Source: Escherichia coli (GTDB taxonomy: Bacteria; Pseudomonadota; Gammaproteobacteria; Enterobacterales; Enterobacteriaceae). From it: 64,000 nucleotides of DNA. The stretch lies in assembly GCF_011045215.1 (NCBI RefSeq), contig NZ_CP049201.1; one strand, written 5' to 3'. Each line of letters starts with the position of its first letter. Position 1 is the first letter of the stretch. The notes under the pieces were generated by a model. The model made no database searches. It saw only the letters and a list, made by a program, of their open reading frames with translations, and had not been told where the DNA came from. The position numbers and the translations under genes are program-made. Positions 7,710-39,387 of this stretch are shown piece by piece.

Positions 7710-8069
7710 TTGTGGAGAAAGTTGATGCGTGATATGTATGAAGTTTTAGACCGCTGGGGAGCGTGGGCTGCAGCAGATAACAGTGGTGTGGACTGGCAGC
7801 CGATAGCAGCAGGCTTTAAGGGGCTTTTACCTCATGGTAAAAAAATACGCCTTCAGTGTGATGATGATGAAGGCATCATGATAGACGGCTGTGTTGCCCG
7901 CCTGTGTAAGTATAAACCAGACGAATATGAGCTGATCATTGCTCACTTCGTTATAGGTATTTCACTGCGTTCTATTGCGAAGAGACGCAGATGCTCAGAT
8001 GGAACAATCCGGAAGCAATTGCAGACTGCGTTAGGTTTCATTAATGGGGTTATGTACATGCTCAAGTAA
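7710..8069 (+). CDS. Phage antitermination protein Q-like, 119 aa
   Basis: Small basic protein with Cys cluster and C-terminal HTH-like segment (IAHFVIGISLRSIAKRRRCSDGTIRKQL), at the canonical Q position upstream of the lysis cassette. Confidence 0.6.
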   Translation: MWRKLMRDMYEVLDRWGAWAAADNSGVDWQPIAAGFKGLLPHGKKIRLQCDDDEGIMIDGCVARLCKYKPDEYELIIAHFVIGISLRSIAKRRRCSDGTIRKQLQTALGFINGVMYMLK

Positions 8070-9288
8070 TATTTGGCATTAATTTAAATAAAATACCGAT
8101 GATGCCTATGAATGTAGGCATCCATGCTAGTGATAATAAACTGTCAAGCACCTTATGACAAAAATCCTCATTGTCATTTAATTTTTTAATAGCCTCTTCT
8201 AAGCTCTCTTTAAGATCGCTGGTGTCATCCTTTATTCTATATCTTAATTGTCCAAAAAGTATTTCTTTAGAGTGTGAAATACGAGCAAGTTGTTTTTTTT
8301 GTGACACAATCATTGCAGATGTTATTATTGCTGTGATAATCAATCCAATTAAAGCAATAATCCAATCAGCTTTTGTTGTTAATTTGAAAATAGCAATTGA
8401 ACCAGCTAGTGAAATAGGTATTGCAAGAGCTTTGTTAGAAATTTCTGAAATTATTTTTGACAGTTTTTCTGAGTAATCGAGTTCAGCATCAACAACTTCT
8501 TTCCTTGCTTTATGAAAAGAAAATGCCGATATATAAGCAGCTAAGTTGTTCGTATAAAGTTCGCATATGAAATCCCACTTGTTAATTAACTCGACAAAGG
8601 AATTTCCATTTTTATTAACATACTCAATAACTGTGTTTCTGAAAGTGTTAATCTTTTCAATGTGATGGGCATCAGTAGTAGCTTCACTACTTACTAATGT
8701 TTTAACTAACTGAGTATTTACTGTTTTATCATTAAAAATTTCTTCTGTAATATTTGTTTCAATTACAGCAGAAGAAGATTTAGACTCTGAGTTTAAAATA
8801 AAGACTAAACGATAAAATGTACCTTTGCTATCTTTTTTTATATCATGGAAATGAGCAAGCATGGAAAGAGCATTGATTAGCTCACAAATGTCCTCAATTT
8901 TTTGGATATAAGAAGGTTTTGGTGTTTCTAATGAATAGAAATCATCCTCTATAATATAGAAATACTCTGGCATTATGCCTTTCTTGAGCGTGTTTATTTT
9001 TACAAACTCGTTTTTATTTTTATAAAAACGATTCGCACTTCCTTGTGAAATTTTAAACGAGTATGTAAGAAAATTTCCCTTTTCAGGAAAGTCTTCATAA
9101 TCATAAATTAAATGACCATCCACCTCTATTTCGTCAGCTGTACCAGCTTGAAAAGTAGGGTTCAAAATTCTTTTGAACAATGATTTTACGTCTGCATTAT
9201 AAGCTATACGCGCAGAAAACTTAGCCCCGTCAAAATGAGGATAGCTTGATAATCTATACAGATTAACTATTATACTAAAATCATTCAT
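8062..9288 (-). CDS. Membrane protein, 408 aa, three predicted TM helices in C-terminal third; candidate effector of two-gene cassette
   Basis: ATG overlaps upstream gene stop (ATGA at 9285..9288); hydrophobic helices (ALAIPISLAGSIAIFKL, WIIALIGLIITAIITSAMIV, LLSLAWMPTFIGIIGILFKLM); AT-rich codon usage. Confidence 0.7.
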   Translation of the reverse strand: MNDFSIIVNLYRLSSYPHFDGAKFSARIAYNADVKSLFKRILNPTFQAGTADEIEVDGHLIYDYEDFPEKGNFLTYSFKISQGSANRFYKNKNEFVKINTLKKGIMPEYFYIIEDDFYSLETPKPSYIQKIEDICELINALSMLAHFHDIKKDSKGTFYRLVFILNSESKSSSAVIETNITEEIFNDKTVNTQLVKTLVSSEATTDAHHIEKINTFRNTVIEYVNKNGNSFVELINKWDFICELYTNNLAAYISAFSFHKARKEVVDAELDYSEKLSKIISEISNKALAIPISLAGSIAIFKLTTKADWIIALIGLIITAIITSAMIVSQKKQLARISHSKEILFGQLRYRIKDDTSDLKESLEEAIKKLNDNEDFCHKVLDSLLSLAWMPTFIGIIGILFKLMPNIT

Positions 9289-10451
9289 TCTTTATCTTCT
9301 TCATTACTCGGGTTATCAGTTTCTTTCAACGCTCTTCTTATCTTAGTTAATGCTTCAACAGGCAAATTATTAAATGTTAGGCTTTGGTTTTCGTCATCAT
9401 AATATATTTTAGCATCAGTTGTGACACCGAGTAAATCCTTGTCGAAGTGAAAGCTCAATGATGGGGTTTTATATATCACATTGCGGATTTTATCTAAGGA
9501 GTTTTTATTGATTACGAACTCTGATGGGATTCTGACTTCCTCACTATTGAGGTGTTTCATTAATTTATCAACAAGTTCTGTTTTTTCTTCCTCTTTTAAA
9601 TAGGACATATGGCCTGAAGCAAGCGATTCGATATCAGAAAGCCTTGCAGAGTGCTCGTTGTCAAATTGCTTTTCTAAGTATTTGATAACATCATTTCTAA
9701 ATGACTCTGCTTGATTTTTTAAAAGAGGTTCTTTCTTAAAGAAACGCCTTATTTCATCTGGTAACTTACGGGTTGCGCCTGCTGAAGCAATCCCCTTGTC
9801 ACATCCTAATGCTGCTATAAAATATGCTGCCGCTGACTGTCCCGTAGTTTTGCTTATAAAGCTTAGATAACTTAAGTCTGTTTTTTTTAAATCATCTGCT
9901 TTTTGGTATTCTTCATAATATCTGAAATTTATTTTTGCTGCTTGGTTAATATTACCAAGTTCTAAGTGAATCATTTCCTCTGGCTCTAAATTTTCACTAA
10001 TAGTTACGCCATTAGTTTTTTTGATCATTGTAACCAATAGATAACGGAAACCAGATAAAATATAATCAGTAAAAACAACATATCCTCCAGAAGCCCAAAT
10101 CTGCTCTTGAGCAGATTTATACATTTGTTTCATAACTTCCTTCGATAATTCAATGAAATCATTTGAAACAGATTGTTGAACTAAAGAGTATTTATGAAAT
10201 AGTTCTGGTATAGGGCCTTGTTTTGTTTTATTTTTAATAAAAACACCATAATGCGCTGAGTTCCCTTTTGAACCATACAAATCAATAACACCGTCTACTA
10301 ATTTTTTTACTATATCATTTGTTTTATCTAGTTCTGTATCACGAAGATTGTATGGTTTGGAGTGATCGAAGTCTTTATTAGATTCTTTTAAGAGCTCATG
10401 AACGATTACGTGGCGTATGCTTGCTTTGCTCATTTTTTTGGTCAATTCCAT
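9285..10451 (-). CDS. NdpA/YejK-like (NA37 family) nucleoid-associated-protein homologue, 388 aa; candidate sensor of two-gene cassette
   Basis: Motif-level resemblance to recalled E. coli YejK: N-terminal IRHVIVHELLK, central GGYVVFTDY...YLLVTMIK...ISENLEP, YLSFISKTTGQSAAAYF, C-terminal SLTFNNLP. AT-rich (~30% G+C in a 60-nt spot check). Confidence 0.75.
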   Translation of the reverse strand: MELTKKMSKASIRHVIVHELLKESNKDFDHSKPYNLRDTELDKTNDIVKKLVDGVIDLYGSKGNSAHYGVFIKNKTKQGPIPELFHKYSLVQQSVSNDFIELSKEVMKQMYKSAQEQIWASGGYVVFTDYILSGFRYLLVTMIKKTNGVTISENLEPEEMIHLELGNINQAAKINFRYYEEYQKADDLKKTDLSYLSFISKTTGQSAAAYFIAALGCDKGIASAGATRKLPDEIRRFFKKEPLLKNQAESFRNDVIKYLEKQFDNEHSARLSDIESLASGHMSYLKEEEKTELVDKLMKHLNSEEVRIPSEFVINKNSLDKIRNVIYKTPSLSFHFDKDLLGVTTDAKIYYDDENQSLTFNNLPVEALTKIRRALKETDNPSNEEDKE

Positions 10452-11050: not shown

Positions 11051-12103
11051 ATGAAAAATACTGTAAAAATAAACAGTGTTGATTTAATCAACGCTGATTG
11101 CCTGCATTTTATTCAGTCCTTGCCTGATGATTCCATTGATCTGATTGTTACCGATCCGCCGTACTTCAAAGTGAAGCCCAACGGCTGGGACAATCAGTGG
11201 AAAGGGGACGAAGATTACCTGAAGTGGCTGGACTACTGTCTGGCCCAGTTCTGGCGGGTACTGAAACCAGCCGGAAGCCTTTACCTGTTCTGTGGACATC
11301 GCCTGGCATCTGATATTGAGATCATGATGCGTGAACGTTTCAACGTGCTTAACCATATCATCTGGGCGAAGCCGTCCGGACGTTGGAATGGGTGTAATAA
11401 AGAAAGTCTGCGCGCATATTTTCCTGCCACAGAGCGCGTTCTGTTTGCTGAACATTACCAGGGGCCATATCGCGGCAAAAGTGACGGCTATGCGGCAAAA
11501 GAAAGGGAACTCAAACAGCACATAATGGCACCGCTGATATCGTATTTCAGGGATGCTCGTGCCGAACTGGGTATAACGGCAAAACAAATTGCCGAAGCCA
11601 CAGGTAAGAAAAATATGGTTTCCCACTGGTTTGGTGCCAGTCAGTGGCAGTTGCCGAATGAGGCTGACTATCGGAAGTTACAGGCACTGTTTTCCCGTAT
11701 AGCGGCAGAGAAGTTTCAGGAACAACAACTGGAACAACCACACCACCAGCTGGTGGCATCTTATGATTCACTGAATCGCAAATATTCTGAATTGCTGGAT
11801 GAGTTTAAATCTCTCCGGCGCTATTTCTCCGTATCAGTCTCCGTGCCTTATACCGATGTCTGGATGCATAAACCCGTTCAGTTCTACCCGGGTAAACATC
11901 CGTGTGAGAAACCTGCGGATATGCTCCGGCAAATAATCAATGCCAGTAGTCGACCTGGTGATCTGGTTGCTGATTTTTTTATGGGATCCGGTTCCACAAT
12001 AAAAGCAGCAATGGCGCTGGGGCGTCGGGCCTTAGGTGTTGAGCTTGAGTCAGAGCGGTTTAACCAGACAGTGAAAGAGATATACGAGCTGGTGGGGAAA
12101 TAA
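11051..12103 (+). CDS. Orphan DNA N6-adenine/N4-cytosine methyltransferase (beta class)
   Basis: Catalytic DPPY motif near N-terminus (LIVTDPPYF) and AdoMet-binding FxGxG near C-terminus (DFFMGSGST); no cognate endonuclease gene adjacent. Confidence 0.85.
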   Translation: MKNTVKINSVDLINADCLHFIQSLPDDSIDLIVTDPPYFKVKPNGWDNQWKGDEDYLKWLDYCLAQFWRVLKPAGSLYLFCGHRLASDIEIMMRERFNVLNHIIWAKPSGRWNGCNKESLRAYFPATERVLFAEHYQGPYRGKSDGYAAKERELKQHIMAPLISYFRDARAELGITAKQIAEATGKKNMVSHWFGASQWQLPNEADYRKLQALFSRIAAEKFQEQQLEQPHHQLVASYDSLNRKYSELLDEFKSLRRYFSVSVSVPYTDVWMHKPVQFYPGKHPCEKPADMLRQIINASSRPGDLVADFFMGSGSTIKAAMALGRRALGVELESERFNQTVKEIYELVGK

Positions 12104-23345: not shown

Positions 23346-23675
23346 ATGCAGTTTGTCATGCGGCTTGCCCGGGAGTTCCGGCGGGCAGACTGGCGGCGGA
23401 TGCTGTCGGAAATGTCGGCCACTGAGCTTGGTGAGTGGGGCGATTATTTCCGGATGCAGAGCTTCAGTGATGTGTGGATGGATGCGCAGTTTGCCTCGCT
23501 GAAGGCATTGATCGTGAGAATGGTGTCCGGTAGCAGTGATGCTGCGGTGGCTGATTTCAGCCTTTTACCGGAAGAGAACGGGATACCGGAGCGAACGGAC
23601 GAAGAACTGATGCATCTTGGGGAAGGTATTTCCGGAGGTGTGCGTTATGGACCAGATAGCCAACCTGGTCATTGA
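23346..23675 (+). CDS. gpT-like segment; likely expressed only as G-T fusion by -1 programmed frameshift
   Basis: ORF in -1 frame relative to G, open from 23313; overlaps G 3' end; candidate slippery site GGAAAAG at 23325..23331. Confidence 0.55.
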   Translation: MQFVMRLAREFRRADWRRMLSEMSATELGEWGDYFRMQSFSDVWMDAQFASLKALIVRMVSGSSDAAVADFSLLPEENGIPERTDEELMHLGEGISGGVRYGPDSQPGH

Positions 23676-26600
23676 TTTGGGGATTGATGCGGCAGAGTTT
23701 AAAAATGAAATTCCCCGTATCAAAAACCTTCTGAATGGTGCAGCCAGCGATGCAGAACGGTCTTCTGCCCGTATGCAGCGTTTTATGGAGCGTCAGACTC
23801 AGGCCGCCCGGCAGACAATGCAGGCGGCTTCTTCGGCTGCAACAGCCGCATCCGTCCATGCGCAGACGGTGGAGAAGAGCGCACAGGCTCATGAACGCAT
23901 GGCCCGCGAGGTGGAGCAAACCCGCCAGCGTATGGAGGCACTGAGCCAGAAAATGCGCGAGGAACAGGCGCAGGCCATGGCTCTGGCGGAGGCTCAGGAT
24001 AAAGCGGCTGCTGCGTTTTATCGTCAGATTGACAGTGTGAAACAGGCCAGTGCGGGGCTGCAGGAATTACAGCGTATTCAGCAGCAGATCCGACAGGCCA
24101 GAAACAGTGGCGGGATTGGTCAGCAGGATTATCTGGCGCTGATTTCTGAGGTTACTGCGAAAACTCGAGTTCTTACACAGGCTGAGGAAGAGGCTACCCG
24201 ACAGAAAGTGGCGTTTATCCGTCAGCTTAAAGAGCAGGCAACCCGCCAGAATCTTTCATCTTCTGAGTTGCTTCGTGCTAAGGCAGCCCAGCTGGGGGTA
24301 AGCAGTGCTGCAGAAGTGTATATCCGCAAAATGGAGCAGGCAGGAAAAGCCACGCATTCGCTGGGGCTGAAAAGTGCAGCGGCCCGCCAGGAGATAGGCG
24401 TTCTGATAGGTGAACTGGCCCGCGGCAATTTAGGGGCGCTGAGAGGATCCGGGATAACGCTGGCTAACCGTGCCGGATGGATAGACACACTGATGTCACC
24501 GAAAGGCATGATGCTGGGCGGGGTTATTGGCGGTATTACCGCGGCCGTCTATGGTCTGGGTAAAGCCTGGTATGACGGTCAGAAGGAGGGGGAAGAATTT
24601 AACCGCCAGCTGTCGCTGACGGGGCACTATGCCGGAGTCACTGCCGGGCAACTGTGGACGCTCAGTCGTGCTATTTCCGGGAATGGTATCACGCAACATG
24701 CTGCAGCCGGTGCGCTGGCTCAGGTGGTGGGGAGTGGCGCATTTCGTGGAAACGATATCGGTATGGTGGCGAGAGCTGCCGCACAGATGGAGCGATCGGT
24801 TGGCCAGTCGGTCAGCGATACCATAAATCAGTTTAAGCGGCTGAAGGATGATCCTGTAAATGCCGCGAAGGCTCTGGACAATGAGCTGCATTTTCTTACT
24901 GCCACTCAGCTTGAGCAGATACGCGTCCTTGGGGAGCAGGGGCGGTCCAGTGATGCTGCACGGATAGCCATGTCTGCACTGGCAGAGGAAACCGGTCGGC
25001 GTACTGCGGATATTGATAATAACCTCAATGCGCTTGGCAGTACGCTGAAGTATCTGTCTGATTTGTGGAGTCGTTTCTGGGATGCGGCCATGAATATTGG
25101 TCGTGAAGACTCGCTGGATGAACAGATTGCCGCTTTACAGGAGAAAGTGTCGCGGGCGAAAAGACTCCCCTGGACGGCATCATCTTCTCAGGTTGAATAC
25201 GATCAGCAGCGTCTTAACGATCTTCAGGAGAAAAAACGCCAGAAGGATTTGCAGGATGCAAAAGAGCAGGCAGAGCGGAATTATCAGGAGCAACAGAAAC
25301 GACGTAATGCTGAAAATGCTGCACTGAACCGGATGAATGAAACGGAAGCAGCACGACATCAGCGTGAAATTGCGCGTATTAATGCCATGCAGTACGCCGA
25401 TCAGGCTGTCAGGGATGCGGCGATACAACGTGAAAATGAACGTTACGAGAAAGCCCTGGCATCCGGTAAGAAAAAAACACGCGAACCCCGTAATGATGAG
25501 GCCACCCGGTTATTGCTGCAGTACAGTCAGCAACAGGCACAGGTGGAAGGGCAGATTGCTGCTGCCAGACAGTCAGCAGGCATTGCCACGGAAAGGATGA
25601 CAGAAGCGCATAAACAGCTTCTGGCTCTGCAGCAGCGCATCAGCGACCTGGACGGGAAAAAACTGACGGCAGATGAAAAGAGTGTGCTGGCCCGTAAAGA
25701 TGAACTGATTCAGGCACTGACGCTGCTGGATGTAAAACAGCAGGAGCTTCAGAAACAGACGGCACTCAACGAGCTGAAGAAAAAAACAATTCAGCTGACC
25801 AGTCAACTGGCTGAAGAAGAGCGCGCTCAGCGTCAGCAACATGACCTGGATATCGCCACGGTGGGTATGGGTGATCAGCAGCGGCAGCGATATCAGGTAC
25901 AACTGAGTCTTCGCCAGAAATACCAGCAACAGCTGGAGCAGTTGAGGCGGGATAGTGAGCAGAAAGGAACATATAACACGGATGACTACAGAAAGGCCGA
26001 GCAGGCGCTGACGGAGAGCCTGAACCGACAACTGAATGAGAATCGCCGTTATTGGCAACAGCTTGAAATTGCTCAGGGTGACTGGAAAAACGGAGTCCTG
26101 CGTGCACTCCAGAATGTCACTGAGAAAGCGGATAACACAGCCGGGACAGTGGAACAGTTGTTCACGTCTGCGTTCAGTAGCATGAGTGACTGGCTGGCGA
26201 CATTCTGTACTACAGGCAAACTCAATTTCAAATCCTTCACCTCTTCTGTGCTGTCAGATATGTCCAGAATCATGGCTCAGATAGCTTTAATGAAAGCGGT
26301 AAAAGGTATTGCTTCCGCGCTGCCTTTTGATTTTGTAGCCAATGCTGATGGCGGTGTTTATCAGTCGGCTGATTTGAGTCGCTACAGTGGCACGGTGGTT
26401 AACCGTCCGACGTTTTTTGCTTTTGCAAAAGGCGCGGGTGTGATGGGGGAAGCTGGACCTGAAGCCATTCTGCCACTGCGTCGTGGTGCTGACGGTAAGC
26501 TGGGGGTTGTGGCGGATATTGGTGGTTCAGGTATGGCGATGTTTGCCCCGCAGTACAACATTGAGATCAATAACGATGGCACGAACGGGCAGATAGGTCC

Positions 26601-26703
26601 GGCTGCCCTGAAGGTGGTTTATGACCTTGGGAAAAAAGCGGCAGCGGACTTTATGCAACAGCAGGCCCGTGATGGTGGTCGGTTAAGTGGAGCATATCGG
26701 TAA
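23647..26703 (+). CDS. Tail tape measure protein (lambda H-like)
   Basis: ~1018 aa, coiled-coil-rich, Gly-rich segment; position between G-T and M. Confidence 0.85.
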   Translation: MDQIANLVIDLGIDAAEFKNEIPRIKNLLNGAASDAERSSARMQRFMERQTQAARQTMQAASSAATAASVHAQTVEKSAQAHERMAREVEQTRQRMEALSQKMREEQAQAMALAEAQDKAAAAFYRQIDSVKQASAGLQELQRIQQQIRQARNSGGIGQQDYLALISEVTAKTRVLTQAEEEATRQKVAFIRQLKEQATRQNLSSSELLRAKAAQLGVSSAAEVYIRKMEQAGKATHSLGLKSAAARQEIGVLIGELARGNLGALRGSGITLANRAGWIDTLMSPKGMMLGGVIGGITAAVYGLGKAWYDGQKEGEEFNRQLSLTGHYAGVTAGQLWTLSRAISGNGITQHAAAGALAQVVGSGAFRGNDIGMVARAAAQMERSVGQSVSDTINQFKRLKDDPVNAAKALDNELHFLTATQLEQIRVLGEQGRSSDAARIAMSALAEETGRRTADIDNNLNALGSTLKYLSDLWSRFWDAAMNIGREDSLDEQIAALQEKVSRAKRLPWTASSSQVEYDQQRLNDLQEKKRQKDLQDAKEQAERNYQEQQKRRNAENAALNRMNETEAARHQREIARINAMQYADQAVRDAAIQRENERYEKALASGKKKTREPRNDEATRLLLQYSQQQAQVEGQIAAARQSAGIATERMTEAHKQLLALQQRISDLDGKKLTADEKSVLARKDELIQALTLLDVKQQELQKQTALNELKKKTIQLTSQLAEEERAQRQQHDLDIATVGMGDQQRQRYQVQLSLRQKYQQQLEQLRRDSEQKGTYNTDDYRKAEQALTESLNRQLNENRRYWQQLEIAQGDWKNGVLRALQNVTEKADNTAGTVEQLFTSAFSSMSDWLATFCTTGKLNFKSFTSSVLSDMSRIMAQIALMKAVKGIASALPFDFVANADGGVYQSADLSRYSGTVVNRPTFFAFAKGAGVMGEAGPEAILPLRRGADGKLGVVADIGGSGMAMFAPQYNIEINNDGTNGQIGPAALKVVYDLGKKAAADFMQQQARDGGRLSGAYR

Positions 26704-29094: not shown

Positions 29095-32000
29095 ATGGGT
29101 AAAGGCAGCAGTAAGGGGCATACCCCGCGCGAAGCGAAGGACAACCTGAAGTCCACGCAGCTGCTGAGTGTGATCGATGCCATCAGCGAAGGGCCGGTTG
29201 AAGGTCCGGTGGATGGATTAAAAAGCGTGCTGCTGAACAGTACGCCGGTGCTGGACACTGAGGGGAATACCAACATCTCCGGTGTCACGGTGGTGTTCCG
29301 TGCCGGTGAGCAGGAGCAGACACCGCCGGAGGGGTTTGAATCCTCCGGCTCCGAGACGGTGCTGGGTACGGAAGTGAAATATGACACGCCGATCACCCGC
29401 ACCATTACGTCTGCAAACATCGACCGTCTGCGCTTTACCTTCGGCGTGCAGGCACTGGTGGAAACCACCTCAAAGGGGGACCGGAATCCGTCGGAAGTCC
29501 GCCTGCTGGTTCAGATCCAGCGTAATGGTGGCTGGGTGACGGAAAAAGACATCACCATTAAGGGCAAAACCACCTCGCAGTATCTGGCCTCGGTGGTGGT
29601 GGGTAACCTGCCGCCGCGCCCGTTCAATATACGGATGCGCAGGATGACGCCGGACAGCACCACAGACCAGCTGCAGAACAAAACGCTCTGGTCGTCATAC
29701 ACCGAAATCATCGATGTGAAACAGTGCTACCCGAACACGGCACTGGTCGGCGTGCAGGTGGATTCGGAGCAGTTCGGCAGCCAGCAGGTGAGCCGTAATT
29801 ATCATCTGCGCGGGCGCATTCTGCAGGTGCCGTCGAACTATAACCCGCAGACGCGGCAATACAGCGGTATCTGGGACGGAACGTTTAAGCCAGCATACAG
29901 CAACAACATGGCCTGGTGTCTGTGGGATATGCTGACCCATCCGCGCTACGGCATGGGGAAACGTCTTGGTGCGGCGGATGTGGACAAATGGGCGCTGTAT
30001 GTCATCGGCCAGCATTGCGATCAGTCGGTGCCGGACGGTTTTGGCGGCACGGAGCCGCGCATCACCTGTAATGCGTACCTGACCACACAGCGCAAGGCGT
30101 GGGATGTGCTCAGTGATTTCTGCTCTGCGATGCGCTGTATGCCGGTATGGAACGGGCAGACGCTGACGTTCGTGCAGGACCGACCGTCGGATAAGGTGTG
30201 GACCTATAACCGCAGTAATGTGGTGATGCCGGATGATGGTGCGCCGTTCCGCTACAGCTTCAGCGCCCTGAAGGACCGCCATAATGCCGTTGAGGTGAAC
30301 TGGATTGACCCGAATAACGGCTGGGAGACGGCGACAGAGCTTGTGGAGGACACGCAGGCCATTGCCCGTTACGGTCGTAACGTCACGAAGATGGATGCTT
30401 TTGGCTGTACCAGCCGGGGGCAGGCACACCGCGCCGGGCTGTGGCTGATTAAAACAGAACTGCTGGAAACGCAGACCGTGGACTTCAGCGTGGGTGCCGA
30501 AGGGCTTCGCCATGTACCGGGCGATGTCATTGAAATCTGCGATGATGACTATGCCGGTATCCGCACCGGCGGGCGCGTGCTGGCGGTAAACAGCCAGACC
30601 CGGACGCTGACGCTCGACCGTGAAATCACGCTGCCATCTTCCGGCACCACGCTGATAAGCCTGGTTGACGGGCAGGGGAGTCCGGTCAGCGTGGAGGTTC
30701 AGTCCGTCACCGACGGCGTGAAGGTGAAAGTGAGCCGTGTTCCTGACGGCGTTGCTGAATACAGCGTATGGGGGCTGAAGCTGCCGACGTTGCGCCAGCG
30801 CCTGTTCCGCTGCGTGAGTATCCGTGAGAACGACGACGGCACGTATGCCATCACCGCCGTGCAGCATGTACCGGAAAAAGAGGCCATCGTGGATAACGGG
30901 GCGCACTTTGACGGCGACCAGAGCGGCACGGTAAATGGTGTCACGCCGCCAGCGGTGCAGCACCTGACCGCAGAAGTCACCGCAGACAGCGGGGAATACC
31001 AGGTGCTGGCGCGCTGGGACACGCCGAAGGTGGTGAAGGGCGTGAGCTTCCTGCTTCGCCTGACCGTGGCAGCGGATGACGGCCGTGAGCGGCTGGTCAG
31101 CACGGCCCGGACGACGGAAACCACTTACCGCTTCACACAACTGGCTCTGGGGAACTACAGGCTGACAGTCCGGGCAGTAAATGCGTGGGGGCAGCAGGGC
31201 GATCCGGCGTCGGTATCGTTCCGGATTGCCGCACCGGCAGCGCCGTCGCGGATTGAGCTGACGCCGGGCTATTTTCAGATAACCGCCACGCCGCATCTTG
31301 CGGTTTATGACCCGACGGTACAGTTTGAGTTCTGGTTCTCGGAAAAACGGATTGCGGATATCAGGCAGGTTGAAACCAGCGCGCGTTATCTTGGTACGGC
31401 ACTGTACTGGATAGCCGCCAGTATCAATATCAAACCGGGCCATGATTATTATTTTTACGTTCGCAGTGTGAACACCGTTGGCAAATCGGCATTCGTGGAG
31501 GCTGTCGGTCAGCCGAGTGATGATGCATCAGGCTATCTGGATTTTTTCAAAGGCGAGATAGGGAAAACCCATCTGGCTCAGGAGCTGTGGACGCAGATTG
31601 ATAACGGTCAGCTTGCGCCTGACCTGACTGAAATCAGGACGTCCATAACGGATGTCAGCAATGAAATAACACAGACCGTCAATAAGAAACTGGAAGACCA
31701 GAGTGCAGCGATCCAGCAGATACAGAAGGTTCAGGTTGATACAAATAATAACCTGAACAGCATGTGGGCAGTGAAGCTGCAGCAGATGCAGGACGGACGC
31801 CTTTATATTGCGGGTATCGGTGCCGGTATTGAGAACACCCCTGACGGCATGCAGAGTCAGGTGCTGCTGGCAGCAGACAGGATTGCGATGATTAATCCTG
31901 CGAATGGCAACACAAAGCCGATGTTTGTTGGTCAGGGCGATCAGATATTCATGAATGAAGTGTTCCTGAAACGCCTGACGGCCCCCACCATTACCAGCGG

Positions 32001-32592
32001 CGGTAATCCTCCGGCATTTTCCCTGACATCAGACGGGAGACTGACGGCGAAAAATGCGGATATCAGTGGCAGTGTGAATGCGAACTCAGGAACGCTCAAC
32101 AATGTCACGATTAACCAGAACTGTACGATTAAGGGCATGCTGGAGGCGACCCAGGTCAGAGGAGATTTCGTTAAAGCTGTATCAAAAGCCTTCCCGAAAA
32201 AAGTCGGTACGTGGGGTAACACGGAAACACCAAACGGTACGGTTACAGTCACCATCAGCGATGATCATAACTTTGACCGCCAGATTATTATTCCGCCCAT
32301 TATTTTTAACGGTATAGCGTATGACGATCCGGGGAGCGGAAATAACCCAGGAGGCACGCGATACACGGGTTATGGTTTTGAAGTTCGCAAAAACGGCGTA
32401 TTAATCGCATCCAGAGAAACTAAAGGGGCCATTCCCGGTAGTTACAGTGCAGTTATTGATATGCCGAGTGGCAGGGGAAGCGTCACTCTGGAGTTTAAGA
32501 TTTTCCAGAAAGGCAATCAGGGGGCAGGCAATATCACCGACTGTACGGTGATTGTGACCAAAAAAGCCGCTTCCGGCATCAGTATTCGTTGA
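29095..32592 (+). CDS. Tail tip/host specificity protein (lambda J-like), 1165 aa
   Basis: Size, position, fibronectin-like repeats; GGAATGGG RBS context. Confidence 0.9.
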
Positions 32593-32662: not shown

Positions 32663-33262
32663 ATGCGTAAAGTTTGTGCAGCAATTTTGTCCGCAGCCAT
32701 TTGTCTGGCCGTATCCGGTGCGCCTGCATGGGCGTCTGAACATCAGTCCACGCTGAGCGCGGGGTATCTTCATGCCTCGACGAACGTCCCCGGCAGTGAT
32801 GATCTGAACGGGATTAACGTGAAATACCGTTATGAGTTTACGGACACACTGGGGCTGGTGACGTCATTCAGCTATGCAGGAGACAAGAATCGCCAGCTGA
32901 CCCGTTACAGCGATACCCGCTGGCATGAAGATTCCGTTCGTAACCGCTGGTTCAGCGTAATGGCGGGGCCGTCTGTGCGCGTAAATGAATGGTTCAGCGC
33001 GTATGCGATGGCGGGTATGGCTTACAGCCGTGTGTCGACTTTCTCCGGGGATTATCTCCGCGTAACTGACAACAAGGGGAAAACGCACGACGTGCTGACC
33101 GGAAGTGATGACGGTCGCCACAGCAACACGTCTCTGGCGTGGGGAGCTGGCGTGCAGTTTAACCCGACCGAATCCGTGGCCATTGATATTGCTTATGAAG
33201 GCTCCGGCAGTGGCGACTGGCGCACTGACGGTTTCATCGTGGGTGTCGGTTATAAGTTCTGA
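32663..33262 (+). CDS. lom: Lom/Ail-family outer membrane beta-barrel protein
   Basis: Signal peptide (AICLAVSGAPAWA), beta-barrel-like alternating pattern, C-terminal F; position after J as lambda lom. Confidence 0.85.
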   Translation: MRKVCAAILSAAICLAVSGAPAWASEHQSTLSAGYLHASTNVPGSDDLNGINVKYRYEFTDTLGLVTSFSYAGDKNRQLTRYSDTRWHEDSVRNRWFSVMAGPSVRVNEWFSAYAMAGMAYSRVSTFSGDYLRVTDNKGKTHDVLTGSDDGRHSNTSLAWGAGVQFNPTESVAIDIAYEGSGSGDWRTDGFIVGVGYKF

Positions 33263-33288: not shown

Positions 33289-33317
33289 AGCCCGCCTGTT
33301 CAGGCGGGCTTTTTTGT
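33289..33317 (+). terminator. Rho-independent terminator after lom
   Basis: agcccgcctg-tt-caggcgggct followed by tttttt. Confidence 0.65.
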
Positions 33318-33326
33318 GGGGTGAAT

Positions 33327-36300
33327 ATGGCAGTAAAGATTTCAGGTGTACTGAAAGACGGCACAGGAAAACCGGTACAGAACTGCACAATCCAGCTGAA
33401 AGCAAAACGTAACAGCACCGCGGTGGTGGTGAACACGCTGGCCTCAGAAAATCCGGATGAAGCCGGGCGTTACAGCATGGACGTTGAGTACGGTCAGTAC
33501 AGCGTTATTCTGTTGGTGGAAGGATTCCCGCCGTCACATGCCGGGACCATCACCGTGTATGAAGATTCCCGACCCGGTACGCTGAATGATTTTCTCGGTG
33601 CCATGACGGAGGATGATGCCCGTCCGGAGGCTCTGCGCCGTTTTGAACTGATGGTGGAAGAGGTGGCGCGTAACGCGTCCGCGGTGGCACAGAACACGGC
33701 AGCCGCGAAGAAGTCAGCCGGCGATGCCGGCACATCTGCCCGTGAGGCGGCAACCCATGCGACTGATGCTGCAGGCTCAGCACGCGCAGCCAGCACGTCA
33801 GCCGGACAGGCCGCTTCGTCGGCTCAGTCAGCGTCTTCCAGCGCAGGAACGGCATCAACAAAGGCCACTGAAGCATCAAAAAGTGCTGCCGCTGCAGAGT
33901 CCTCAAAAAGCGCGGCAGCTACCAGTGCCAGTGCCGCGAAAACGTCAGAAACGAATGCTGCAGCGTCACAACAATCAGCAGCCACTTCTGCATCCACCGC
34001 GACCACGAAAGCGTCAGAAGCTGCCACCTCAGCCCGGGATGCGTCGGCTTCAAAAGAGGCGGCAAAATCATCAGAAACGAACGCATCCTCGAGCGCCAGT
34101 AGCGCATCTTCCTCGGCAACAGCGGCAGGAAATTCCGCGAAGGCGGCAAAAACGTCAGAGACGAACGCCAGGTCTTCTGAAACGGCAGCGGGACAGAGCG
34201 CCTCGGCTGCGGCAGGCTCAAAAACAGCGGCTGCGTCGTCTGCCAGTGCAGCGTCAACAAGTGCCGGGCAGGCCTCAGCCAGTGCCACCGCCGCCGGAAA
34301 ATCGGCAGAAAGCGCCGCATCGTCTGCTTCAACAGCCACAACGAAGGCTGGCGAAGCCACTGAACAGGCCAGCGCAGCAGCGAGGTCTGCTTCCGCAGCG
34401 AAGACATCCGAAACGAACGCGAAAGCGTCGGAAACCAGCGCAGAATCCTCAAAAACGGCTGCCGCATCGTCAGCCAGTTCGGCGGCGTCATCGGCATCAT
34501 CGGCGTCTGCTTCAAAAGATGAGGCGACCAGACAAGCGTCAGCAGCGAAGAGCAGCGCCACGACGGCATCCACGAAGGCGACAGAGGCTGCTGGCAGTGC
34601 GACGGCGGCAGCTCAGAGCAAAAGTACGGCGGAATCCGCGGCAACGCGCGCCGAGACAGCAGCTAAACGGGCAGAGGATATTGCATCCGCCGTGGCGCTT
34701 GAGGATGCAAGTACGACGAAAAAGGGGATAGTACAGCTCAGCAGTGCGACCAACAGTACGTCTGAAACGCTGGCGGCAACGCCAAAGGCAGTAAAATCAG
34801 CCTATGACAATGCAGAGAAACGTCTGCAGAAAGACCAGAACGGCGCTGATATACCCGATAAGGGATGCTTCCTGAACAACATTAACGCGGTCAGTAAAAC
34901 AGACTTTGCTGATAAGCGTGGTATGCGTTATGTGCGGGTTAACGCTCCTGCAGGTGCAACATCTGGAAAATATTACCCTGTTGTTGTTATGCGTTCTGCT
35001 GGCTCAGTAAGCGAACTGGCATCAAGAGTCATTATCACCACGGCAACGCGAACCGCAGGCGATCCGATGAATAACTGCGAGTTTAACGGATTTGTTATGC
35101 CTGGTGGCTGGACTGACAGGGGGCGTTATGCTTATGGCATGTTCTGGCAATATCAAAACAATGAACGAGCCATTCACTCAATAATGATGAGTAATAAGGG
35201 CGATGATTTGCGCTCTGTGTTCTATGTTGATGGCGCTGCTTTCCCTGTTTTTGCGTTTATTGAAGATGGCCTGTCAATATCCGCACCTGGTGCTGATCTC
35301 GTTGTTAATGATACGACCTATAAGTTTGGGGCAACAAATCCGGCGACTGAATGTATCGCGGCGGACGTTATCCTTGATTTTAAGAGTGGGCGTGGTTTTT
35401 ATGAGTCTCATTCGTTAATCGTTAACGATAACTTGTCGTGCAAAAAACTTTTTGCCACAGACGAAATTGTAGCGCGTGGTGGTAATCAGATTCGAATGAT
35501 AGGTGGGGAGTATGGGGCATTATGGCGTAATGATGGCGCTAAAACTTACCTGCTGCTTACCAATCAAGGTGATGTTTATGGTGGCTGGAATACATTAAGA
35601 CCGTTTGCTATTGATAACGCAACCGGCGAACTGGTTATTGGAACCAAACTGTCCGCAAGTCTGAACGGTAATGCATTAACAGCAACAAAGCTGCAAACGC
35701 CAAGACGGGTTTCTGGTGTTGAGTTTGATGGTTCCAAAGATATTACTTTAACCGCCGCGCATGTGGCTGCTTTTGCCAGAAGGGCAACGGATACATATGC
35801 CGATGCGGATGGTGGCGTTCCCTGGAATGCCGAATCAGGCGCTTATAATGTCACCCGCTCTGGCGACAGCTATATTCTGGTTAACTTCTATACCGGAGTC
35901 GGAAGTTGCCGGACCCTGCAGATGAAGGCGCATTACAGAAATGGTGGTCTGTTCTACCGTTCTTCAAGAGACGGTTATGGTTTTGAGGAAGACTGGGCAG
36001 AAGTTTATACCTCGAAAAATCTTCCACCAGAAAGCTACCCAGTCGGCGCACCAATCCCGTGGCCATCAGATACCGTTCCGTCTGGTTATGCCCAGATGCA
36101 GGGGCAGACTTTTGACAAATCTGCCTACCCGAAACTTGCAGCCGCTTATCCGTCAGGCGTGATCCCTGATATGCGTGGCTGGACGATTAAGGGCAAGCCC
36201 GCCAGTGGTCGTGCCGTATTGTCTCAGGAACAGGACGGCATTAAATCGCATACCCACAGCGCCAGCGCATCCAGTACGGATTTGGGTACGAAAACCACAT

Positions 36301-36728
36301 CGTCGTTTGATTACGGAACCAAATCCACGAATAACACCGGGGCGCATACCCATAGTATTAGCGGGACTGCAAATAGTGCCGGTGCGCACCAACACAAGAG
36401 TTCCGGTGCATTTGGTGGCACGAACACGAGCATTTTTCCTAATGGTTATACTGCGATTTCAAATCCAAGCGCGGGGATTATGAGCACAACAAGCGGTACT
36501 GGCCAGACTCGTAATGCAGGGAAGACATCATCAGATGGTGCTCATACCCACTCACTGTCCGGCACTGCTGCAAGCGCAGGTGCACACGCACATACTGTCG
36601 GTATTGGTGCTCATACGCACTCCGTTGCGATTGGTTCACATGGACACACCATCACCGTTAACGCTGCTGGTAACGCGGAAAACACCGTCAAAAACATCGC
36701 ATTTAACTATATTGTGAGGCTTGCATAA
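33327..36728 (+). CDS. stf: Side tail fibre (lambda Stf-like), ~1134 aa with long Ala/Ser/Thr-rich repeat region and His-rich C-terminal repeats
   Basis: N-terminus [26 protein letters not shown] and C-terminus [31 protein letters not shown] match recalled lambda Stf; repeats SAA.TSETNA and GAHTHS. Confidence 0.85.
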
Positions 36729-37309
36729 TGGCATTCAGAATGAGTGAACAACCACGGACCATAAAAATTTATAATCTGCTGGCCGGAACTAATGAATTTA
36801 TTGGTGAAGGTGACGCATATATTCCACCTCATACAGGTCTGCCAGCAAACAGTACCGATATTGCACCGCCAGATATTCCGGCAGGCTTCGTGGCTGTTTT
36901 CAACAGTGATGAGGCATCGTGGCATCTTGTTGAAGACCATCGGGGTAAAACGGTTTATGACGTGGCTTCCGGCGACGCGTTATTTATTTCTGAACTCGGC
37001 TTATTACCGGAAAATGTCACCTGGTTATCCCCGGAAGGGGAGTTTCAGAAGTGGAACGGCACAGCCTGGGTGAAAGATGCAGAAGCAGAAAAACTGTTCC
37101 GGATCCGGGAGGCGGAAGAAACAAAAAACAACCTGATGCAGGTAGCCAGTGAGCATATTGCGCCACTTCAGGATGCTGTAGATCTGGAAATCGCAACGGA
37201 GGAAGAAAACTCGTTGCTGGAAGCCTGGAAGAAGTATCGGGTGTTGCTGAACCGTGTTGATACATCAACTGCACCTGATATTGAGTGGCCTGTAATACCA
37301 GAAGTTTAA
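36728..37309 (+). CDS. tfa: Tail fibre assembly protein (lambda Tfa-like)
   Basis: 193 aa; TAATG overlap with stf; followed by hairpin agcccgc...gcgggct at 37316..37345. Confidence 0.8.
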
Positions 37310-37428
37310 AATAAAAGCCCGCTTAAAATATCGCGGGCTTCGAAATATAAATGTATTTTCAGAGGCTAGAGCTTAGGATATCTCAGCGGCAATTAACTTA
37401 TGAGGGATAGCTAAATACCAGAAGATAA

Positions 37429-38319
37429 TTAGTTTTTACTATTTATCTTTGTTTGTGGTTCTCCTTCAGCAAGCTCAGCGCCAGTGACAGGATTGATGTC
37501 TTCATGGGATTTCAACCTTGTTGCCATAGCTTTTATCATAGCTTCTTGCTTGGTCGAAAGATTTATCGAGGCCTTCCCATCCCCACCGTCAACCGCTGGA
37601 ACTGGATCGGAAATATAGTCAAAGTTTTCATCACTGTTCCAACTACCTCTGACGTCTTCACCTTCTGACATGTTGTAATATACGTTTTTGTATTTCTCAA
37701 TTGGTGGTAATTTTCCTGGTGGAAAGGTGTTGCGAATTGAATGTAATGCTTTTTCAAATGAAAGCATGTGTGCTGCTTCCCTGGTCATTAAAAATGCCAG
37801 AGTGTCTTTTACTCCAGGATCATCAGTAACATTAATGAGACGTTCGTAAATGATCTTTGCCCGAGCTTCAGCTGCAATATTTGAACGAAGATCGGCCGTG
37901 ACTTCGCCAATAGTATCAACATAAGCTGCAGTCCAGGGTACTCCAGCTGAATTAGTTAATGCTGGGCCTCCTCCGTAGAGGAGAGAAGTTATATGGCTGT
38001 CATTGCCATTTTGAGTTAAGGAACGGTAAAGCTCAGCTTCATTCTCAGTTCCTTCAGCAAGTGCTCCTTTTGCACCTTTGTTGAGCATACCAACAAGAGA
38101 ACCAATAATTTCGAGATGACTTAGTTCTTCTGTTGCTATGTCCATCAGCATATCCCTTCGGCCTGCATCTTCATCACTTAAGCCTTGAGTGAAGTATCGG
38201 CATGCTGCTGCAAGCTCACCCTGTGGCCCGCCGAATTGTTCTAAAAGTAGATTAGCCAAGCCTGGGTTTGGCTCACTTACACGTACTGTATATTGAAGTT
38301 TTTTCACGTGTCTAAACAT
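37429..38319 (-). CDS. katN: Manganese catalase (KatN-like), 296 aa
   Basis: Mn-catalase ferritin-like features (EELSHLEI, TREAAHM); last gene of a yciGFE-katN-type operon. Confidence 0.8.
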   Translation of the reverse strand: MFRHVKKLQYTVRVSEPNPGLANLLLEQFGGPQGELAAACRYFTQGLSDEDAGRRDMLMDIATEELSHLEIIGSLVGMLNKGAKGALAEGTENEAELYRSLTQNGNDSHITSLLYGGGPALTNSAGVPWTAAYVDTIGEVTADLRSNIAAEARAKIIYERLINVTDDPGVKDTLAFLMTREAAHMLSFEKALHSIRNTFPPGKLPPIEKYKNVYYNMSEGEDVRGSWNSDENFDYISDPVPAVDGGDGKASINLSTKQEAMIKAMATRLKSHEDINPVTGAELAEGEPQTKINSKN

Positions 38320-38337
38320 AATGCCTCCTCAAAAGAA

Positions 38338-38844
38338 TTATTTTTTGGCTTCAACTCCATCAATTTCAGATCTGACCATGAATTGCTCAGTGGTGTCAGG
38401 AATATGGTTAAGAAGCCATTCAGCCATTTGTTTTTCTTCATTAAGAATTGCTTCAATAATGGGTACTGAAGCTGTATCACCCGCATTTTTGGCTGCTGCG
38501 AGAAGAGATGTGTAGCACGCAATTTCAAATTGTTCGAAAACATAGCCACTGATCGAACCTTTGACAATTTCATCAGATGGAAAAATTCCACCAATGGATT
38601 GCCCAAACGCGGCCATTTTACTCATAGAGTCTTTAATGACAGAGCGCGAAATATTATTACGATCAAGTATGCTTTCAAGCTGTGAAAGCTGGTTCTTTGT
38701 TTCGCTAATGTGCTGCTCAATTCTGGAACGTAACTCTGGATAGTTTTCTATCCGGCTGGCCATAGACTCAAGCATTTTTTCAGCTTGTTTCTCCATCGCA
38801 TGTGCATCACGAAGCCAGTCATGGTAATGTTCAATTCTATTCAT
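38338..38844 (-). CDS. yciE: YciE-like ferritin-like (DUF892) stress protein, 168 aa
   Basis: Length and organisation as recalled Salmonella yciGFE-katN operon. Confidence 0.75.
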   Translation of the reverse strand: MNRIEHYHDWLRDAHAMEKQAEKMLESMASRIENYPELRSRIEQHISETKNQLSQLESILDRNNISRSVIKDSMSKMAAFGQSIGGIFPSDEIVKGSISGYVFEQFEIACYTSLLAAAKNAGDTASVPIIEAILNEEKQMAEWLLNHIPDTTEQFMVRSEIDGVEAKK

Positions 38845-38880
38845 AATCTGTTTATCCTAAAAGAAATTGAAGTCTATAGT

Positions 38881-39387
38881 TCAGGAGTTATCCTGAGCTT
38901 TTTTATTAACGTTATTAAATGCCAGGTCTGTTAATTTGACATCAGTAGCTTTTTCCTCTTCCAGTGTTTCTTTCAGGAGTTTAGCCGCTTTTTTATATCC
39001 TAATTGCTCAGCGAGTGTTACCAAAGTGCCATAACTGGCAATTTCATAGTGCTCTACTTTTTGTGCTGCAGCAATCAATGCAGCATCACGTACTTCATTT
39101 TTATCAGTGCTTTCAATTACCTCATTCGCCTCTTCGATAAGTCCTTCCATTGCGGCACACTTAATTCTTTTCAATTTAAGACCATCTTCAGAATCAACAA
39201 TCTGATCGATGCGTTCAATTTGACCATGTGTCTCATCAAGATGTGACTGAAAAGCAGCGGTTAATTTATCACTATATGCAGAGCGACTAAGTTTAGACAG
39301 TGCCTTTGTTAGTTGTTTCTCAGCGCTGTATGTATCCGATAATAAGTGGATGAAGATATCTTCAACAGATTTAATTTGCATAATCAC
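38881..39387 (-). CDS. yciF: YciF-like ferritin-like (DUF892) stress protein, 168 aa
   Basis: Paralogue of the adjacent gene; same size. Confidence 0.75.
   Translation of the reverse strand: MIMQIKSVEDIFIHLLSDTYSAEKQLTKALSKLSRSAYSDKLTAAFQSHLDETHGQIERIDQIVDSEDGLKLKRIKCAAMEGLIEEANEVIESTDKNEVRDAALIAAAQKVEHYEIASYGTLVTLAEQLGYKKAAKLLKETLEEEKATDVKLTDLAFNNVNKKAQDNS

Follow-up and report, generated by a model that had tools for sequence, protein, structure and literature searches.

An StfR-type side tail fibre gene in a lambda-like prophage at the ydfJ site of Escherichia coli

Four trimeric side fibres at the tail tip, and the faster adsorption associated with them, are known only for Ur-lambda (PMC12617516). 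The cryo-EM structure of the Ur-lambda tail includes the N-terminal domain of lambda Stf (PDB 9e7m), which has a collar role; the same work describes a hinge in Stf and models as a trimeric coiled coil the segment homologous to the repeat tract treated below (PMC12617516). For lambda Stf, binding to OmpC is reported (PMC12617516), and possibly to unmodified O16 antigen (PMC11990801); neither specificity is transferable to the fibre described here. The second relevant system is the long tail fibre of T4, in which the receptor contacts of gp37 sit in its tip subdomain (PMC6957217). In the gp37 crystal structure, the HxH motifs coordinate seven iron atoms (PMC6957217, PMC11705849).

The locus studied here lies in a 64,000-nucleotide stretch of E. 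coli DNA (assembly GCF_011045215.1, contig NZ_CP049201.1), which we refer to as the window. We conclude with high confidence that it is an intact stf gene belonging to a lambda-like prophage that sits in the ydfJ/Qin site, and that it encodes an StfR-type side tail fibre of 1133 amino acids (Table 1). Pfam, matches in the PDB and alignment agree with the original prediction in identifying a lambdoid side tail fibre.

Table 1. Features of the stf-tfa region (positions are those of the window)
Feature	Position	Strand	Description
Terminator-like hairpin	33289..33315	+	AGCCCGCC-TGTTCA-GGCGGGCT and T run; between lom and stf
Shine-Dalgarno-like GGGGTGA	33318..33324	+	2 nt 5' of ATG 33327; read from sequence
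stf CDS, StfR-type side tail fibre	33327..36728	+	1133 aa, intact; Pfam PF08400, PF21446, PF07484, PF03335
N-terminal collar (anchor) domain, residues 1-94	33327..33608	+	PF08400 E = 3e-71; PDB 9e7m
Ala/Ser/Thr heptad tract, residues 102-458	33630..34700	+	51 unbroken heptads, consensus S-A-(S/T)-x-A-x-(T/S)
Shadow ORF, +1 frame	33724..34731	+	335 aa, R/Q/P-rich; composition by-product, not a gene
Antisense shadow ORF	33824..34573	-	249 aa; fully explained by codon composition; not a gene
Antisense shadow ORF	33919..34644	-	241 aa; not a gene
15 heptads (105 aa), residues 308-412	34248..34562	+	Present here and in K-12 StfR, missing in Ur-lambda Stf; alignment, indel table
Coiled-coil end and conserved 25-residue fibre motif	34644..34889	+	Common to Mu tail fibre protein S; phmmer to PDB 5yvq, 8ju3
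Beta-rich globular domain, residues 533-697	34923..35417	+	AF2 pLDDT mostly 80-95; without close solved relative
T4 gp34-like shaft/trimerisation domain	35313..35657	+	
Mu S/S'-like distal shaft domain	35763..36047	+	
T4 gp37-type receptor-binding tip	36030..36725	+	Collar, six-stranded needle, tip subdomain; PF07484 Collar, PF03335; PDB 2xgf
Seven HxH motifs	36249..36647	+	First His codons at 36249, 36345, 36387, 36543, 36585, 36612, 36639
Hypervariable tip insert between HxH 3 and HxH 4	36396..36542	+	Predicted receptor-contact subdomain, residues about 1024-1072
tfa, tail fibre assembly chaperone	36728..37309	+	193 aa; PF02413 E = 3e-44; PHROG 105 'tail fiber assembly'

The gene, its operon and its relatives

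The open reading frame as listed spans 33321..36728 on the plus strand, with a GTG at 33321. Because that GTG falls inside a Shine-Dalgarno-like element, ATG 33327 is the likely start, and a protein beginning with MAVKISG matches both the RefSeq annotation of the orthologue and the start of PDB 9e7m. The hairpin upstream of stf has a nine-pair stem with seven G-C pairs, followed by a T run; it may stop lom transcripts in the lysogen, with antiterminated late transcription reading through. The genes J (29095..32592), lom (32663..33262), stf and tfa follow the usual lambdoid order, which is likewise annotated in E. coli LR-62-2, K-12 Rac and E. coli 55989. The tfa ATG overlaps the stf stop codon (TAATG), and Tfa shares 93% identity with lambda Tfa and 94% with TfaR. 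The late operon in the window further includes intact terminase, portal, tape measure, L, K, I, J and lom genes. On the 3' side of tfa there are Mn-catalase and YciE/YciF-like cargo genes and then a truncated ydfJ, and the host element is a lambda-like prophage inserted in ydfJ (the Qin site). A search of NCBIfam assigned no family to Stf or Tfa, and a defence-system search with two unexplained genes of the prophage returned no matches.

The exact 1133-aa protein is present in NCBI (WP_164475711.1/QIF13623.1), in a 90%-identity cluster of 15543 members. The annotated stfR of E. coli LR-62-2 has 98.7% DNA identity over its full length, and the gene also occurs in the free GenBank phages ev099, mEp332, PhiR34_1 and Kati, with 97-98% identity across 95-100% of it. 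A full-length match to a known fibre, the finding that the original prediction had named as speaking against it, is therefore essentially what the databases show. Gene, modules and exact protein had all been catalogued before, and the fibre is an ordinary one made of known modules.

The StfR protein of the K-12 Rac prophage (b1372, 1120 aa) has the same architecture from end to end, including the same central module and seven HxH motifs, and is likewise followed by tfa. The spacing between its tract anchors is equal to that found here, at 359 residues. At the DNA level the two genes are 98-100% identical from nt 34226 to 36176 and 92-99% identical across the first 900 nt, but identity falls to 68-82% at about nt 36326-36626, where the gap between HxH 3 and HxH 4 measures 52 residues here and 39 in K-12. 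By sequence comparison, this fibre has the StfR architecture with a tip allele other than that of K-12. The two elements also differ in surroundings: K-12 Rac has the pin invertase downstream and occupies the Rac site, whereas this prophage lacks pin and occupies the ydfJ/Qin site. A 987-aa fibre at the ydfJ site of E. coli 55989 shares the integration site, downstream cargo, N-terminus and tract, as well as the tip allele and tfa (97-100% DNA identity), but it is 146 aa shorter and has an unrelated central module, with DNA identity of about 50% at nt 34826-36026.

Lambda Stf, which the original prediction had taken as the match, does match at both ends. The Ur-lambda protein (774 aa) has the collar domain in common with this fibre, at 92% identity over the first 100 residues; the first two 50-aa blocks agree at 46 of 50 residues each and residues 951-1000 at 49 of 50, and the C-terminal 11 residues are the same. 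It also has the same heptad tract family, the 25-residue junction motif and a gp37-type C-terminus. The closest relative, however, is K-12 Rac StfR. The tract of lambda Stf is shorter by 105 aa (15 heptads), and its short distal helical region corresponds to a beta-structured module of about 410 aa here. It has eight HxH motifs and an extra SFDYGTKT repeat, as opposed to seven HxH motifs, and the tip inserts of the two fibres are unrelated in sequence. The expectation of a differing middle is thus borne out, and the tract is indeed the longer one, but the centre is a different, non-homologous module and not merely one of another length: across the central region, nucleotide identity to lambda is about 50%, which is the noise level.

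Collar, heptad tract and central shaft

The first 94 residues match PDB 9e7m with E = 1e-50 (phmmer). The tract that follows had been described as Ala/Ser/Thr-rich repeats at about 33700..34700, which agrees well with the periodic region in Table 1. Alanine, serine and threonine together make up 72-80% of every 50-aa block from nt 33771 to 34670. Self-identity within the tract is significant only at lags that are multiples of seven (z = 7-10, 300 shuffles), and alanine recurs with a period of 3.5 residues. A single register is kept throughout, with alanine at the two core columns in 47 and 35 of the 53 tabulated heptad rows. Modelled by AF2 from its single sequence, the tract comes out almost wholly helical (pLDDT about 70-88); the monomer folds back as a three-helix bundle, a modelling artefact, and the model is usable for helicity only, not for the trimer. 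Taken together, periodicity and model identify the tract as the predicted proximal coiled-coil shaft.

Length variation in the tract comes almost exclusively in whole heptads. Indels across 84 related loci measure 14, 35, 42, 56, 98, 105 (at three sites) and 112 aa, all multiples of seven; the single exception among the 84 loci is a 220-aa deletion (L066), which is not. Retention of the heptad register across length variants is therefore a strong tendency and not a rule. A weaker additional reading is that shaft length may be selected in whole-heptad steps to match the depth of the host surface glycan layer. The tract does not qualify as a tandem DNA repeat: Tandem Repeats Finder gives a 22-nt trace alone, in-register copies have about 50% DNA identity, and no lag stands out as a recent duplication. 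It is an old, diverged heptad array.

The segment at the end of the coiled coil may be a junction or hinge region, equivalent to the lambda hinge. In the beta-rich domain beyond it (residues 533-697), a sequence search of the PDB found no match, and fold comparison gave only weak matches outside phage fibres. What this fibre has in common with Mu S (PDB 5YVQ, 8JU3) and the C-terminal region of T4 gp34 (PDB 4UXE, 5NXF) is confined to the shaft and junction segments; their anchors and tips, and the invertible arrangement of Mu, are not shared.

Other readings of the locus

The original prediction had anticipated that the tract would generate long spurious open reading frames, and three are present (335, 249 and 241 aa). 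It is very improbable that these frames, even the antisense one at 33919..34644, are real overlapping genes. We examined them with codon, synonymous-codon and heptad-column shuffles, a window-wide baseline for NCT-A junctions and a survey of 60 tracts. The +1 frame is open because the tract's own codons cannot yield a stop there (0 +/- 0 stops in 1000 shuffles with the tract codon set), and a frameshifted allele (L083) reads into it for >270 aa; both this frame (33724..34731) and the antisense frame at 33824..34573 are fully accounted for by codon composition. The antisense frame that runs across the NCT-A junctions has more in its favour, with 2 stops against the 9.5-11 expected from shuffles that keep protein and codon usage (P about 0.001), and the corresponding frame is open in lambda too. 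However, NCT-A junctions are depleted across the genes of the window (ratio 0.61), which lowers the expectation to about 6 stops (P about 0.07), and in 60 distinct homologous tracts the frame contains 0 to 4 stops, varying by allele and interrupting it at variable places. As the number of stops differs from allele to allele, no single antisense ORF is conserved. The translations of all three frames are low-complexity, and a Pfam search with them found no match. The protein itself has also attracted other names, since some members of its 90%-identity cluster are called a tape measure protein or a 'short-chain fatty acid transporter'. The chance that either describes its function is negligible: Pfam and PHROG support neither name, all of their matches are to tail fibre families, and the real tape measure gene lies elsewhere (23617..26703). 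Both names are annotation errors, which the low-complexity tract probably triggered.

A gene that is a tail fibre gene by descent could nonetheless be a functionless relic, carried by a defective prophage and never built into a particle. Its nearest relative that has been characterised, K-12 Rac stfR (98-100% identical outside the tip), does sit in a cryptic prophage, and truncated or frameshifted alleles are common among the related loci and cluster members. We nevertheless consider this unlikely, as the ORF runs uninterrupted for 1133 codons and is coupled to an intact tfa, the window's late operon also has the intact genes listed above, and the same gene occurs in the free phages ev099, mEp332, PhiR34_1 and Kati. 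It is scarcely credible that the fibre belongs to a Pin/Gin/Cin-type switch, in which an inverting segment would change host range through alternative C-termini. That arrangement is brought to mind by pinR, which adjoins tfaR downstream in K-12 Rac and E. coli LR-62-2, and by the segments common to Mu S, the 3' part of which inverts. Here, however, there is no recombinase gene 3' of tfa, region 33300..37400 contains no inverted repeats of at least 16 nt, and a search for gix-like sites that allowed up to 3 mismatches gave none.

The tip and receptor contact

The protein's C-terminal part matches gp37 residues 811-1026 in PDB 2xgf with E = 2e-82 (phmmer) and 70% identity over the aligned columns. 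Histidine-rich repeats had been predicted at 36240..36660, and the seven HxH motifs all fall within that range. They are spaced by 32, 14, 52, 14, 9 and 9 residues, six of the seven fit G(A/S)HxH(S/T/K), and they align one-to-one with the seven of T4 gp37, including the conserved iron ligands H929/H931. Collar and stem are the same as in gp37 and the last 40 residues are nearly identical. In contrast, the gp37 tip subdomain (residues 932-959) gives way to an insert that exceeds it by about 15 residues and has 10/50 identity, and the chaperone is a lambda-type Tfa, not gp38/gp57A; the remainder of the fibre is unrelated to gp37.

The original prediction had linked receptor specificity to the length of the repeat tract and central region. 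We find no support for this link: T4 gp37 contacts its receptors through the tip subdomain (PMC6957217), and the tip insert lies inside the sole segment that diverges from K-12 StfR (about nt 36326-36626). By analogy with gp37, specificity most likely resides in the tip insert and not in tract length. At least nine allele classes of this insert occur among the gp37-type fibres in the fetched loci. Of 5426 complete E. coli genomes, 996 (about 18%) have the allele found here, and it also occurs in several free lambdoid phages. Of the 11 gp37 residues mapped for LPS/OmpC binding, just 2 are conserved, so the receptor is not inferable from T4 gp37; judged by sequence, the fold class is common to both tips and the specificity is not. 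It is possible, though we hold the idea only tentatively, that this allele defines a specificity other than the OmpC/LPS of T4 gp37 and lambda Stf, such as another porin, an LPS core type or an O-antigen. In the literature on this tip-allele class, no experimentally characterised member is apparent.

Based on these homologues, we suggest how the fibre may be built and used. It would work as a homotrimer, with twelve N-terminal domains (residues 1-94) forming a ring around the gpV/gpM junction of the tail tip, from which four fibres would extend. After a short linker, the 51 heptads, with alanine at both core positions, would form a trimeric coiled coil, thin and rigid and roughly 53 nm long, which is about 15 nm (15 heptads) more than in Ur-lambda. 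Past the junction motif, Mu-S-like and T4-gp34-like domains make up a beta-structured distal shaft. In the needle, each chain would run down and back, and seven His-x-His layers, contributed by three chains, may each hold one iron. Where the needle turns, the loop-rich insert (residues about 1024-1072) would present the receptor-contact surface, and Tfa, encoded by the overlapping downstream gene, would act as the chaperone that folds the tip. Receptor contact would provide fast, reversible primary adsorption and thereby make it likelier that J, the central fibre, meets its own receptor.

For annotators, the tract calls for caution, as it yields ORFs of 240-335 aa in three wrong frames as well as wrong product names. 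The mapped module boundaries (collar, heptad shaft, junction motif, central shaft, needle and tip insert), along with the natural tip alleles, are of modest practical value; module data of this kind are used in constructing chimeric lambda fibres that serve phage or cosmid delivery (PMC11338833). The whole-heptad length variants tell engineers where the shaft can safely be shortened or lengthened.

We conclude that the observation behind the original prediction is real and its identification of a side tail fibre correct, but that nothing in it is new: the gene is a StfR-type mosaic of catalogued modules.

An intact fibre gene at the end of a late operon

The window carries an intact stf, the side tail fibre gene of a lambda-like prophage, with the right neighbours, a coupled tail fibre assembly chaperone gene (tfa), module homologies, regular heptad and His-x-His (HxH) registers, and mosaic relations to other fibres. 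Lambdoid late operons normally end with this arrangement, J-lom-stf-tfa. The reading frame is listed as 33321..36728 (+), with GTG 33321 as the earliest in-frame start codon beyond the preceding stop. This GTG falls within a Shine-Dalgarno-like element (GGGGTGA), with ATG 33327 at the right distance after it. Because of this spacing, and because MAVKISG begins both the RefSeq-annotated orthologue and the lambda structure 9e7m, we place the start at the ATG and number residues from it. The hairpin between lom and stf is strong (9-pair stem, 7 G-C pairs, T run); it would stop lom transcripts in the lysogen, and stf expression would need antiterminated transcription.

Features of the fibre locus and of neighbouring prophage genes
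Feature	Coordinates	Strand	Remarks
antisense gene pair	8062..10451	-	407 aa and 387 aa
DNA methyltransferase gene	11051..12103	+	type II-like
J	29095..32592		upstream of lom
lom	32663..33262		between J and hairpin
terminator-like hairpin	33289..33315		between lom and stf, within late operon
stf	33327..36728	+	ORF; 1133 aa
shadow ORF	33724..34731	+	335 aa
shadow ORF	33824..34573	-	249 aa
shadow ORF	33919..34644	-	241 aa
tfa	36728..37309		ATG overlaps stf stop as TAATG
cargo genes	37429..39387, on to ~40378	-	between tfa and ydfJ'

All domain matches are to fibres, as originally predicted. Pfam finds, in order, the prophage tail fibre N-terminal domain (E = 3e-71), the T4 gp34 trimerisation domain (3e-27), the phage tail collar domain (2e-11) and, below threshold, the phage fibre repeat. 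In PHROGs, stf matches tail fibre families only, and the downstream gene matches "tail fiber assembly." Among solved structures, residues 1-94 match the lambda Stf N-terminal domain (9e7m, E = 1e-50), 440-521 and 813-907 Mu fibre protein S (5yvq, 8ju3), 706-777 T4 gp34, and 902-1133 the receptor-binding tip of T4 gp37 (2xgf, E = 2e-82). Residues 494-908, searched against 1.8 billion representative proteins, returned 3113 relatives, whose matches split into three sub-modules (approximately residues 494-700, 707-813 and 772-908), the middle one repeated many times in long fibres. An AF2 model of this central module (42 sequences, mean pLDDT 73) has a confident beta-rich domain at 533-697, for which no close solved relative was found, followed by two moderately confident beta domains. 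From these relatives and beta domains, the central module is fibre shaft, neither an enzyme nor a second known receptor-binding domain.

The prophage is inserted in ydfJ, the Qin site; downstream of the cargo come a ydfJ copy without its N-terminus and then ydfI, as in E. coli 55989. The cargo, on the strand opposite to stf and tfa and low in G+C (0.38-0.44), comprises a Mn-catalase gene (PF05067), DUF892/YciE-like and YciF-like genes (both ferritin-like) and a small general-stress gene. They resemble stress-protection cargo carried at the prophage's right end. E. coli 55989 shares the tfa-cargo-ydfJ' junction, as do 370 of 5426 complete genomes. Elsewhere inside the prophage, two adjacent genes oppose the late operon. 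The 407-aa product has no Pfam match, the 387-aa product matches the 37-kDa nucleoid-associated protein family (PF04245), and neither has a PADLOC match; a methyltransferase gene follows them. A moron is one possible explanation of the two genes, an unrecognised defence pair another.

Shaft length varies by whole heptads

The Ala/Ser/Thr-rich repeat region (the tract, forming the proximal shaft) is as originally described and strictly seven-residue periodic, with Ala, Ser and Thr making up 72-80% of every 50-residue block from nt 33771 to 34670. Self-identity is in excess at multiples of 7 only (lags 1-99 tested; z = 7-10), and alanine has a period of 3.5 residues. Residues 102-458 form 51 heptads in one register without a stutter; the consensus is S-A-(S/T)-x-A-x-(T/S), and Ala occupies two core columns in 47/53 and 35/53 of the tabulated rows. 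The tract is not a tandem DNA repeat: Tandem Repeats Finder reports almost nothing, in-register DNA copies are only ~50% identical, and their comparison favours no higher-order repeat lag.

The tract is 105 residues longer than that of lambda, exactly 15 heptads. Across 80 related IMG/VR loci and four reference loci, tract indels are, with one exception, multiples of seven: 14, 35, 42, 56, 98, 105 (at three sites) and 112 aa. The exception, 220 aa (7n+3), is a deletion in the stf homologue of one IMG/VR locus, L066 (UViG 3300029719_000311), and would exchange the two alanine core positions. The L066 fibre also has the junction motif KGI(V/I)[11 protein letters not shown] in duplicate. Multiples of seven could reflect either selection for register or recombination between 21-nt periodic DNA; whichever the cause, shaft length varies by whole heptads.

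Cryo-EM of Ur-lambda resolved the collar domains and the beginning of a trimeric bundle, the remainder of the homologous segment being modelled as a trimeric coiled coil (PMC12617516). In our AF2 single-chain model, residues 94-500 are almost entirely helical (pLDDT ~70-88); the fold-back seen there is an artefact of modelling a single chain. At the textbook rise of ~0.148 nm per residue, the 357-residue tract would be ~53 nm long, of which the extra 15 heptads would contribute ~15.5 nm.

Long reading frames within the tract

The original prediction also held that the tract generates long spurious ORFs in other frames, and three such shadow ORFs are present. We reject them as genes: none has a Pfam match, and they are by-products of composition. 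For the tract alone (residues 123-450), its codon set leaves the +1 frame no possible stop (0 +/- 0 in shuffles), and one antisense frame is as expected (2 stops versus 0.8-1.6 across shuffle types). The second antisense frame, that of the 241-aa ORF, has 2 stops versus 9.5-11 expected with the protein sequence held fixed, because NCT|A codon junctions are scarce, approximately five-fold rarer than in codon shuffles (2 versus ~10). This junction stands at 0.61 of expectation across other window genes, so that ~6 stops are expected (P ~0.07) and the excess depletion in the tract becomes marginal. Among 60 distinct homologous tracts, the same frame has 0-4 stops, differing between alleles. The residual depletion across the whole fibre family is only partly explained.

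The tract can mislead annotation. In another IMG/VR locus, L083 (UViG 2534682287_000004), a frameshift within the tract takes the stf homologue into the +1 shadow frame, which then stays open for >270 codons. The resulting chimeric ORF, of 481 aa, illustrates how such ORFs come to be called and how the tract masks frameshifts from gene calling based on ORF length. Several near-identical records in the window protein's cluster are variously misnamed "short-chain fatty acid transporter," "phage tail tape measure protein" and "tail length tape measure family protein"; these names are annotation errors, apparently caused by the low-complexity tract.

Mosaic relations, tip and receptor

Full-length identity to a known fibre, which the original prediction had counted against itself, does occur: the exact 1133-aa protein is already deposited in NCBI (WP_164475711.1, QIF13623.1). 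Its 90%-identity cluster holds 15543 sequences, and a copy covering >=80% of the gene is present in 1230 of 5426 complete E. coli genomes. The annotated stfR of E. coli LR-62-2 has 98.7% DNA identity over its full length. The gene also occurs in free phages at 97-98% identity, which extends along the whole gene in ev099 and mEp332 and along 95% of it in PhiR34_1 and Kati. Aligned with the window protein, the 774-aa Ur-lambda Stf is alike at the ends, with a shorter tract and a different centre, much as predicted for lambda Stf. Its N-terminal 100 residues are 92% identical, its tract is homologous but lacks window residues 308-412, residues ~495 to 905 have no counterpart, and the C-terminus is similar again.

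K-12 Rac stfR has 98-100% DNA identity from nt 34226 to 36176, 68% and 82% in two 150-nt blocks (nt 36326-36626), and 100% again beyond; the protein differs only between the third and fourth HxH motifs. The fibre of the same-site prophage of E. coli 55989 shows the opposite pattern, sharing tip and tfa (97-100%) with an unrelated central module. The window gene is therefore a mosaic, each module of which exists elsewhere. The lambda N-terminal part functions with foreign C-termini of P2, K1F, K5 and KL106 phages (PMC11338833), which supports a modular reading of the fibre. An invertible fibre segment is rejected: there is no recombinase gene after tfa and no inverted repeat >=16 nt in 33300..37400, and a gix-like site was not found.

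The predicted C-terminal histidine repeats resolve into seven HxH motifs (nt 36249 to 36647) at spacings of 32, 14, 52, 14, 9 and 9 residues, which pair with the seven gp37 motifs that bind seven iron atoms along the needle (PMC6957217; PMC11705849). T4 numbering can be transferred soundly, as the alignment reaches gp37 residue 1026 and H929/H931 lie opposite histidines. The collar and descending stem share 95/121 residues with gp37, and the ascending stem plus C-terminus 47/61; the tip subdomain shares 10/50 and is ~15 residues longer than in T4. Mutagenesis has implicated 11 gp37 residues in LPS or OmpC binding (PMC6957217); two are identical here. Tip inserts of gp37-type fibres in the fetched loci fall into at least nine classes, with lengths of 38-59 residues when the third and fourth HxH motifs are counted in; 11 of 43 fibres share the window's class.

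By homology, the fibre would trimerise and fold with the help of Tfa (review PMC7291167), and twelve N-terminal domains would dock as a collar at the gpV/gpM junction, giving four fibres (PMC12617516). Its HxH motifs would bind iron, and reversible primary adsorption would help J to reach its own receptor. OmpC is a reported receptor of lambda Stf (PMC12617516, PMC11338833), unmodified O16 antigen perhaps another (PMC11990801), and T4 gp37 binds OmpC and LPS (PMC6957217); none of these receptors is transferable to the window's tip insert. The putative specificity-determining part is thus a common tip allele, present in 996 of 5426 complete E. coli genomes, for which we found no experimental characterisation in the literature.
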